In this document: piece by piece, positions 1,864-3,499 of the stretch
Layout: each line of letters begins with the position of its first letter
How positions within the stretch are numbered: position 1 is the first letter of the stretch
Virus record (IMG/VR): IMGVR_UViG_2663763326_000007
Length of the DNA: 43,062 nucleotides
Reading direction: 5' to 3' (one strand)
From: a virus
Lineage: Duplodnaviria > Heunggongvirae > Uroviricota > Caudoviricetes
Position numbers and translations under genes: made by a program
Notes under the pieces: generated by a model
The model's input: only the letters and a program-made list of their open reading frames with translations
What the model was told of the DNA's origin: nothing
Database searches by the model: none

Positions 1864-3499
1864 CCCGCCGCAGCTGGTTTATCAAACATCGCGCCACGAT
1901 TGTACGAACTCGCAGCCTGTCTCAGTCCATCGAGCACCCCCGACGCTGCAGATTGTTGTATTGACTGCGGATCTGTCGCACCGACAATATTGATTTCGAT
2001 TTTATTGTTTTGCTCCGGCGCAGGTGTCGAGACTGCCTGCTTCAACGTATCAATATTTAACGTCGACGAATCCAGTGCTGCAGGCGCGGTATTTTTATTT
2101 ACCATCCCGGATAATGGATTAACAAACGCGAGCATTGATTCTGCCTGAGATTTTGCCTGTTCTTGCCGTTCTGGATGCCGCATATTTTCGACAGCCTCTT
2201 CGGCTTTTGCCTTCGCAATATTATCAGCAGTCAATCCAGCGTTCGGTGAATATTTACCTCCCGAATCCATAAACTCTTGATATGCCCGATTATATTCGTC
2301 ATTATAAGTTTTCTGTTCTTCATCTGATTTTTCATCCGGAATAAGCCACTCCAGTTTCTTTACGACAGCCCATATAATCTTCCCGAATTTGACGCAACCT
2401 TCTCCAAAATTGACGATGCCATCCCACATTTTTTTCATATTTTCTGGTTTTACCCACTCAGTAATTGTGCTGACAAAACCACCCTGATTATCCTTAAACC
2501 AGGATGTAAATGTTTCACGTACTGAGTCAAACGTCGGCGCGAGTTCCCCCCGATTTTACCGAGTGTATCTGCAAGTCCCGACGTAATAGAGCCCCACAGA
2601 TTTGTCACTGATACATGCGCACGCGCCGCCCCTTCCGCACCCTCTTTTGTTAACAAATTCGACTTTTGCGCGTCAGACATTGTCTGTTCCCAGCTTTTAC
2701 CCGTCGCCTTCATATACGTCATGATCTTATTAGCCTCGCCCCCCATGAGCTGGTCAGCGAGGCTCGCCGCTTGCTTCTCATCTTTCATTTCAGAGATGCG
2801 ACGCATAACCTCATTAAACTGTTTTTCCCGATCCCAGCCAGCCATTCGTTTTTTCGTCAGGCCAATTTGAAATAACATGGGATTCAGGCTTTTTTCGTTT
2901 CCGATTTCGCCGATTTTATTTGTAAGTTCTTCAGACAAATCCCCGATATTTTCGCCGTTCAGGCCCGCGGCTTTACCAATATTTTCCCACGCAGCGTATT
3001 TTTCGACGCCAACGCCGTAGGACTTCGCCAGACCGAGTTTTTCTGACGTCTCTGCATTCATTGCCAGCGCACCAGCTGCAGCACCGCCAATGAGCCCTGC
3101 CGCGCCAAGTGTCCCCCATTTGATACCCCGCCCCGTAGCCCTCACCGCACCTGCGGCGGCTCGTCCGCCCCATTTTGCAGCTCCTTTTGCGCGACCCGTC
3201 CACTTCTCCAGCCGCTGTTTTTTAGCAAGTTGAGTATTCAGCGCCTCCTGGTCCTGCGTTGTCGCTTTTATTCGACGGTCCAGCTTTTGATACTGAGCAG
3301 ATAAATCAGAAACGTCTTTACCTGCCAGTTTCATTGCTGCGATTTTGTCTTTTAATTTATCCTGACTTTTCGTTAATTTCCCGACAGTAGACGACGTCTG
3401 CCGAATCGCATCATTGAGTTCTGTTGTACCGCGACGAAACGACGGGTCTATTCGCCCACCGAATACAACCTGCGTTTTAAAGTTTTGAGAAATAGCCAT
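1860..3499 (-). CDS. Tail tape measure protein, split into two ORFs (2450..3499 and 1860..2438) by a 1-nt frame break at a G6 run
   Basis: N-terminal ORF is Ala/Gly/Lys-rich and coiled-coil like a tape measure and ends in junk (..GGNSRRRLTQYVKHLHPGLRIIRVVLSAQLLSG). One extra G in the coding-strand G6 run (plus-strand C6 at 2546..2551) reads through in frame to MKKMWDGIVNF.. of the second ORF with no stop. Confidence 0.7.

Follow-up and report, generated by a model that had tools for sequence, protein, structure and literature searches.

A split gene at the tape-measure position of an Escherichia coli ST131 prophage and its probable origin in a homopolymer undercall

At the tape-measure position of the tail module of a 43-kb E. 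coli ST131 prophage, all of whose late genes are on the minus strand, two open reading frames are found where relatives have one. The question raised by this locus is whether a base was lost from the gene in the bacterium, either as ordinary decay or as part of a functional slippage device, or was lost from the sequence only. In what follows, the window is the whole stretch of DNA analysed, 43,062 nucleotides in length. The split is, with high probability, a homopolymer undercall in a long-read assembly. The real gene would carry a run of seven G and encode one 546 aa tape-measure-position protein, and the assembly from which the window derives would have dropped one base at this run and likewise at two more C/G runs of the same prophage, the likeliest source being a long-read assembly left unpolished or partly polished.

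The split gene and the prophage around it

The whole gene, by position the equivalent of gpT of phage P2, occupies 1860..3499 on the minus strand and has a length of 1,640 nt, against 1,641 nt (546 aa) in relatives. In the upstream ORF (2450..3499, minus strand, 349 aa), residues 1-318 of the tape-measure-position protein are encoded before the frame is lost, and 31 codons out of frame then lead to a stop. The downstream ORF (1860..2438, minus strand, 192 aa) starts from an ATG inside the gene, back in the proper frame, and supplies residues 355-546; residues 319-354 (36 aa) of the intact protein are absent from both. Translated straight through, 1860..3499 loses its frame after the residues GKIGG, at a homopolymer tract which is C6 on the plus strand (2546..2551, context GAGTT CCCCCC GATTT) and G6 on the coding minus strand. 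The coding strand of the window reads ATC GGG GGG AAC, and the consensus has G7, with the codons ATC GGG GGG GAA (I-G-G-E); the type of change is a single-base contraction, G7 to G6, within a homopolymer. That a G6 tract stands between two minus-strand ORFs had been proposed in an earlier note made from the sequence alone, and both the sequence and the ORF listing agree with it. The note had also predicted a frame of roughly 546 aa if one more G were present; one G added to the tract does yield an ORF of 546 codons, the product of which matches WP_001018353.1 of strain EC958 at every residue. The profile PHROG 3654 matches the intact protein from end to end and the two ORFs of the window map onto its positions 1-322 and 358-577, which argues that the two have not been juxtaposed by chance.

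The order of genes at the locus, which is sheath, tube, PF10109 chaperone, split gene, PF06995 gpU, tail protein X and gpD, is as expected for a tape-measure position. Directly upstream of the split gene lies the gpE-like tail assembly chaperone gene (3608..3889, minus strand; PF10109) and directly downstream the gpU-like tail protein gene (1435..1863, minus strand; PF06995). P2 gpT and the tape measures of phiCTX and the R-type pyocins have the same slot in the order sheath, tube, E/E', T, U, X, D, although P2 gpT, with about 815 aa, is longer than the 546 aa protein described here. The protein of the split gene matches no Pfam or NCBIfam family, and its identity as a tape measure accordingly derives mainly from gene order. 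The best family for the intact protein is PHROG 3654 (E = 2e-262), annotated as of unknown function; the match to the tape-measure family phrog_8125 is weak (E = 0.0018), and the name "tape measure protein" comes from UniRef for the intact protein and from the annotation of one Vibrio phage homologue. Support for the label is good from position and weak from sequence.

Between the chaperone gene and the split gene, the -1 frame stays open for 56 codons (3477..3647, minus strand); the open stretch includes the tail end of the chaperone gene, crosses the 108-nt gap and overlaps the start of the tape-measure-position gene by 23 nt. By analogy with the known E/E+E' arrangement of P2, this stretch is probably a candidate gpE+E' extension of the chaperone, made by a programmed -1 frameshift. 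No canonical slippery heptamer was identified for it, the nearest candidates being GTAAAG and CGAAAG.

The prophage combines a lambda-like head module (terminase, gpW, portal, S49 protease, decoration protein, capsid) with a contractile tail module of the P2/phiCTX type, which is composed of baseplate V/W/J/I, fibre, sheath, tube, gpE-type chaperone, the split gene, gpU, tail protein X and gpD. One boundary of the window coincides with the end of the last gpD fragment and the other with that of the integrase gene; such limits suggest that it was probably excised as a predicted provirus. A number of database records show only part of the same element: ON470596.1 and its sibling records named "Escherichia phage vB_EcoM-...", of about 20 kb, start inside the bacterial yecA gene and contain only the tail half of the prophage. 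The records, titled "complete phage genome", resemble fragments of predicted prophages and not virion genomes.

Two other lesions are present in the window. The gpD gene (VgrG/Pvc8-like) is found as fragments of 54 aa and 257 aa (1..165 and 272..1045, minus strand), with an extra A at about position 278 (GGACAAGG versus GGACAGG). This split is common to EC958, to ST131 strain 751, described below, and to all six sampled control genomes, and gpD is intact (347 aa) in SK1144, Br_54_kylling and CP164427. It looks like a real frameshift of the whole lineage, and the tail has probably been disabled by it already. The second lesion is a 1.44 kb IS150 element of the IS3 family (40447..41885; orfA of 173 aa and orfB of 283 aa, with the usual programmed frameshift), which interrupts the DUF4224 gene adjoining the integrase gene. 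With an apparently real gpD frameshift and an IS150 insertion, the element resembles other cryptic or defective prophages that carry frameshifted tail genes.

This setting is a point in favour of the main rival reading, according to which the G7 run underwent a genuine and recent 1-bp slippage deletion, leaving one more pseudogene in an already decaying prophage. G7 runs are slippage-prone, and a prophage which is plausibly defective already, its gpD being split by an extra A and its DUF4224 gene interrupted by IS150, would be under relaxed selection for the tape-measure-position gene. We consider a genuine deletion unlikely in view of the comparisons that follow.

Run length in the same clone and in other genomes

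The clone of the window was identified by means of the left IS150 junction (window 40367-40526), which was used as a probe against 5,426 complete E. coli genomes. It is matched in full by one of the 5,426, ST131 strain 751 (NZ_CP103562.1; assembly GCF_024917975.1), and the uniqueness of the junction to this strain identifies the window's clone; strain 751 may, we infer, be the very same isolate from which the window originates. Strain 751 aligns with the window over all 43,062 bases without a mismatch, and the alignment has exactly three gaps. At each of them a C run is one base shorter in the window, with C6 in place of C7 at the tape-measure tract and C5 in place of C6 at 20306 and at 23236. 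The second contraction (20306..20310, minus strand) lies in the TIGR02594 endolysin-like gene region (20169..20648, minus strand) and cuts the product of this gene to 120 aa, compared to 159 aa in relatives. The third (23236..23240, minus strand) is non-coding and is located just upstream of the start of the gene for a 59 aa hypothetical protein. In strain 751 both the tape-measure-position gene (WP_001018353.1) and the TIGR02594 endolysin-like gene are intact. Against EC958, the 41.6 kb compared show these three differences again and not one substitution.

Three run contractions without any substitution relative to the same clone are the signature of run-length miscalls and not of mutation. 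In E. coli substitutions normally outnumber indels, mismatch-repair mutants included, as is known from the mutation-accumulation literature. A genuine deletion at the tape-measure tract would have to be accompanied by two further independent run contractions, with zero substitutions in 43 kb against the same clone. On the same figures (three run indels, no substitution in 43 kb) and by qualitative comparison with published spectra, a mismatch-repair mutator was rejected as the main cause.

Strain 751 carries at least two copies of IS150. As the window runs across this multi-copy element without a break, the contig from which it was taken is likely to be based on long reads. The reads underlying the assembly would be expected to support G7.

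The gene is present in 453 of the 5,426 complete E. coli genomes, in 427 of them at 99% identity or more. An 81-nt probe carrying the G7 run was matched exactly in 419 of the 429 genomes that have the tract (97.7%). The corresponding 80-nt probe with G6 was matched exactly in six genomes and with one difference in 425, for a total of 431. Genomes with G7 have one annotated CDS of 1,641 nt, and those with G6 have two annotated hypothetical proteins (WP_244557696 and WP_244557695). G8 occurs in at least one genome, that of strain Nord8, where the gene is truncated differently. In E24377A and LCP30S3_I5, relatives at 84-89% nucleotide identity, one ORF of 546 aa spans the gene and the peptide GKIGGELAPTFD is conserved; at 84% identity the run itself is broken by an A, E24377A reading ATC GGA GGG GAA (GGAGGGG). 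Judged from these sequences, the gene was undivided in the ancestor and mostly still is, and the G7 is a synonymous run specific to the lineage. The comparison of homologues proposed in the earlier note thus returns a single gene, and not two separate ones.

The diverged version of the gene in E24377A has a G8 run of its own at another place, at about column 755 of the alignment. In APEC20/16 this site reads G6 and the gene is split, which is a break of the same type at a different run of a related prophage.

These data also bear on the possibility that the run is functional, either as a phase-variable switch of the tail or as a G6 allele that is decoded to full length by programmed frameshifting or transcriptional slippage. 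Such a role is suggested by the presence of G6, G7 and G8 alleles in public assemblies and by the adjoining chaperone gene, which probably uses a programmed -1 frameshift. Against it, the run is in frame, as G7, in 97.7% of complete genomes and is not conserved in distant relatives, as the GGAGGGG of E24377A shows; there is neither a slippery heptamer at the tract nor a conserved split architecture, and the 31-codon out-of-frame tail is not kept as a separate product in any relative examined. A programmed frameshift at the tract was rejected on the first two of these grounds, the in-frame consensus and the lack of conservation of the run; nor is the two-ORF arrangement conserved, with a single ORF in 419 of 429 genomes and in the relatives at 84-89% identity. 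Functional slippage in either form is scarcely credible.

The six-base allele and assembly type

Homopolymer-length errors are the commonest residual error of bacterial assemblies made from long reads only (PMC8812927, PMC9262707), and this class of error is also described in PMC12007338. In order to relate the allele to assembly type, the database blocks containing the exact 349 aa product of the G6 allele were grouped according to the longest contig carrying it, in the classes below 2, 2-5, 5-10, 10-20, 20-50 and 50-200 kb, 0.2-1 Mb and above 1 Mb. The 190 blocks with the G6 product are distributed over these classes as 16, 48, 40, 56, 0, 1, 0 and 29, and the blocks with the intact protein as 16, 763, 1407, 3663, 1454, 7192, 633 and 1178. 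Between 20 kb and 1 Mb, which is the range of short-read isolate assemblies, the G6 product accounts for one of 9,280 blocks (1 versus 9,279 intact). Above 1 Mb it accounts for 29 of 1,207 (29 versus 1,178 intact), or about 2.4%, and the odds ratio between the two ranges is 228 (p = 1e-26). The single block in the 50-200 kb class which carries the G6 product speaks for a genuine deletion, while a shift of the frequency of G6 by about 200-fold with the class of contig size speaks against one. Out of the 190 blocks with the G6 product, 160 belong to the classes below 20 kb, and these may count against an artefact, depending on the platforms that produced them.

The same distribution is relevant to slippage with a function. 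Contigs of short-read size practically never carry an out-of-frame allele, and a phase-variable contingency locus was rejected on this ground and on account of the interruption of the tract in relatives of the E24377A type. A weaker form of the idea is that the G7 run is hypermutable and switches off the tape measure, and with it the tail, in a small fraction of ST131, in which case the G6 and G8 alleles in public databases would be in part real heterogeneity sampled by long reads; we regard this as very improbable.

The long contigs that carry G6 have further homopolymer indels, often many of them. Two of the six RefSeq genomes with G6 originate from Poland, two from Thailand and one each from Taiwan and Brazil. 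In the five of the six that were compared over the wider locus the SNP backgrounds differ, and one has an intact gpD, from which it follows that G6 was not inherited from one ancestor. None of the six is a match for the window, given the lengths of the other two runs: the run at 23236 has its consensus length in all six and the run at 20306 in five, while A1.S1.126 has a different 1-bp deletion beside the 20306 run. In six G7 genomes, which served as controls and were picked at even steps down the match ranking, the 13.8 kb surrounding the gene contain no indel.

Nanopore basecalling characteristically produces errors at methylated motifs. Among the five G6 genomes compared over 40 kb, four have errors at GAGACC/GGTCTC, where GAGACC is changed into GAAACC or GAGAACC. 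GAGACC is the EcoMI motif and is fully m6A-methylated in ST131 (PMC4659465). One such error, the GAGAACC in the capsid gene, is found in 19 of the 431 genomes and in three of the six with G6 (Fisher p = 0.0013). The recurrence of G6 in unrelated assemblies with independent signatures of long-read error is a further argument against a genuine deletion.

The motif errors are not limited to genomes with G6. Substitutions and insertions at GAGACC/GGTCTC recur in several "complete" ST131 genomes of RefSeq, for example at the equivalents of window positions 12933, 13288, 11117 and 16140, and through errors of this type the major capsid gene seems to be frameshifted in the 19 genomes just mentioned. 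A group of assemblies named "Esc", of nearly identical sizes (5,156,4xx-5,156,5xx bp), differ amongst themselves in carrying the capsid-gene GAGAACC error, which suggests that they are replicates of one strain.

Some run-length variants elsewhere in the prophage appear to be real, and they lend some weight to a genuine deletion. The G5 allele of the endolysin-like gene is found on two otherwise clean contigs (L026 and L030; JBELNC010000011.1 and Logan SRR34580174) which share two SNPs, and in another sublineage the mutation may be genuine. Most contigs with this allele are error-rich, and two Logan contigs inspected that carry it have seven run indels each in about 14.8 kb.

In several respects the window is alike to known cases of false frameshifts in long-read (ONT or PacBio) assemblies: a G/C run of six or more is undercalled by a single base and nothing but other run contractions goes with it, a finished genome from the same clone has the gene unbroken, and the allele clusters on contigs of chromosome length. 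It differs from the other affected ST131 assemblies, which have methylation-motif errors, in being free of them. The absence from the window of any error at GAGACC or CCWGG motifs, such as other nanopore-type assemblies contain, in comparison with EC958 and strain 751, counts against an artefact, and so does the longest G/C run of the window, the intergenic C8 at 27726..27733, which is unchanged with respect to both genomes. These two observations indicate that the error profile of the window is mild and selective and that its source, if made from long reads, was fairly well basecalled or polished. The C8 run at 27726 is itself a site of unstable length, which reads C7, C9 or C10 in other contigs (L026, L028, L029).

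The skew over size classes, the mixed SNP backgrounds and the co-occurrence with GAGACC errors show that the allele follows assembly type and not phylogeny. Unlike the inherited decay of a prophage, the break in the tape-measure-position gene is absent from the finished genomes of the lineage and behaves as a technical variant. The earlier note had left the choice between a homopolymer sequencing error and a genuine inactivating or slippage-prone mutation. The first is strongly favoured by the G7 run in the same clone, by the restriction of the differences to three C-run contractions and by the association with assembly type; the slippage-prone or programmed option is unsupported.

Weight of the finding

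An undercall at this tract is nothing new: it is a textbook example of how a homopolymer error in a long-read assembly breaks a gene, here a P2-type tape-measure-position gene in a well-known prophage of ST131. The deletion, if it were real, would be routine pseudogene decay, merely a second lesion in a prophage whose gpD is frameshifted across most of the lineage. The biological weight of the split is very small in either case, and its practical value is that of a warning on one-base run errors in long-read assemblies. Such errors split structural genes of phages into pairs of "hypothetical proteins" which spread through the databases; the two products of the present split already have RefSeq WP accessions of their own and are found on about 150 contigs. 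Splits of this kind would mislead calls of prophage completeness, counts of pseudogenes and screens for programmed frameshifts.
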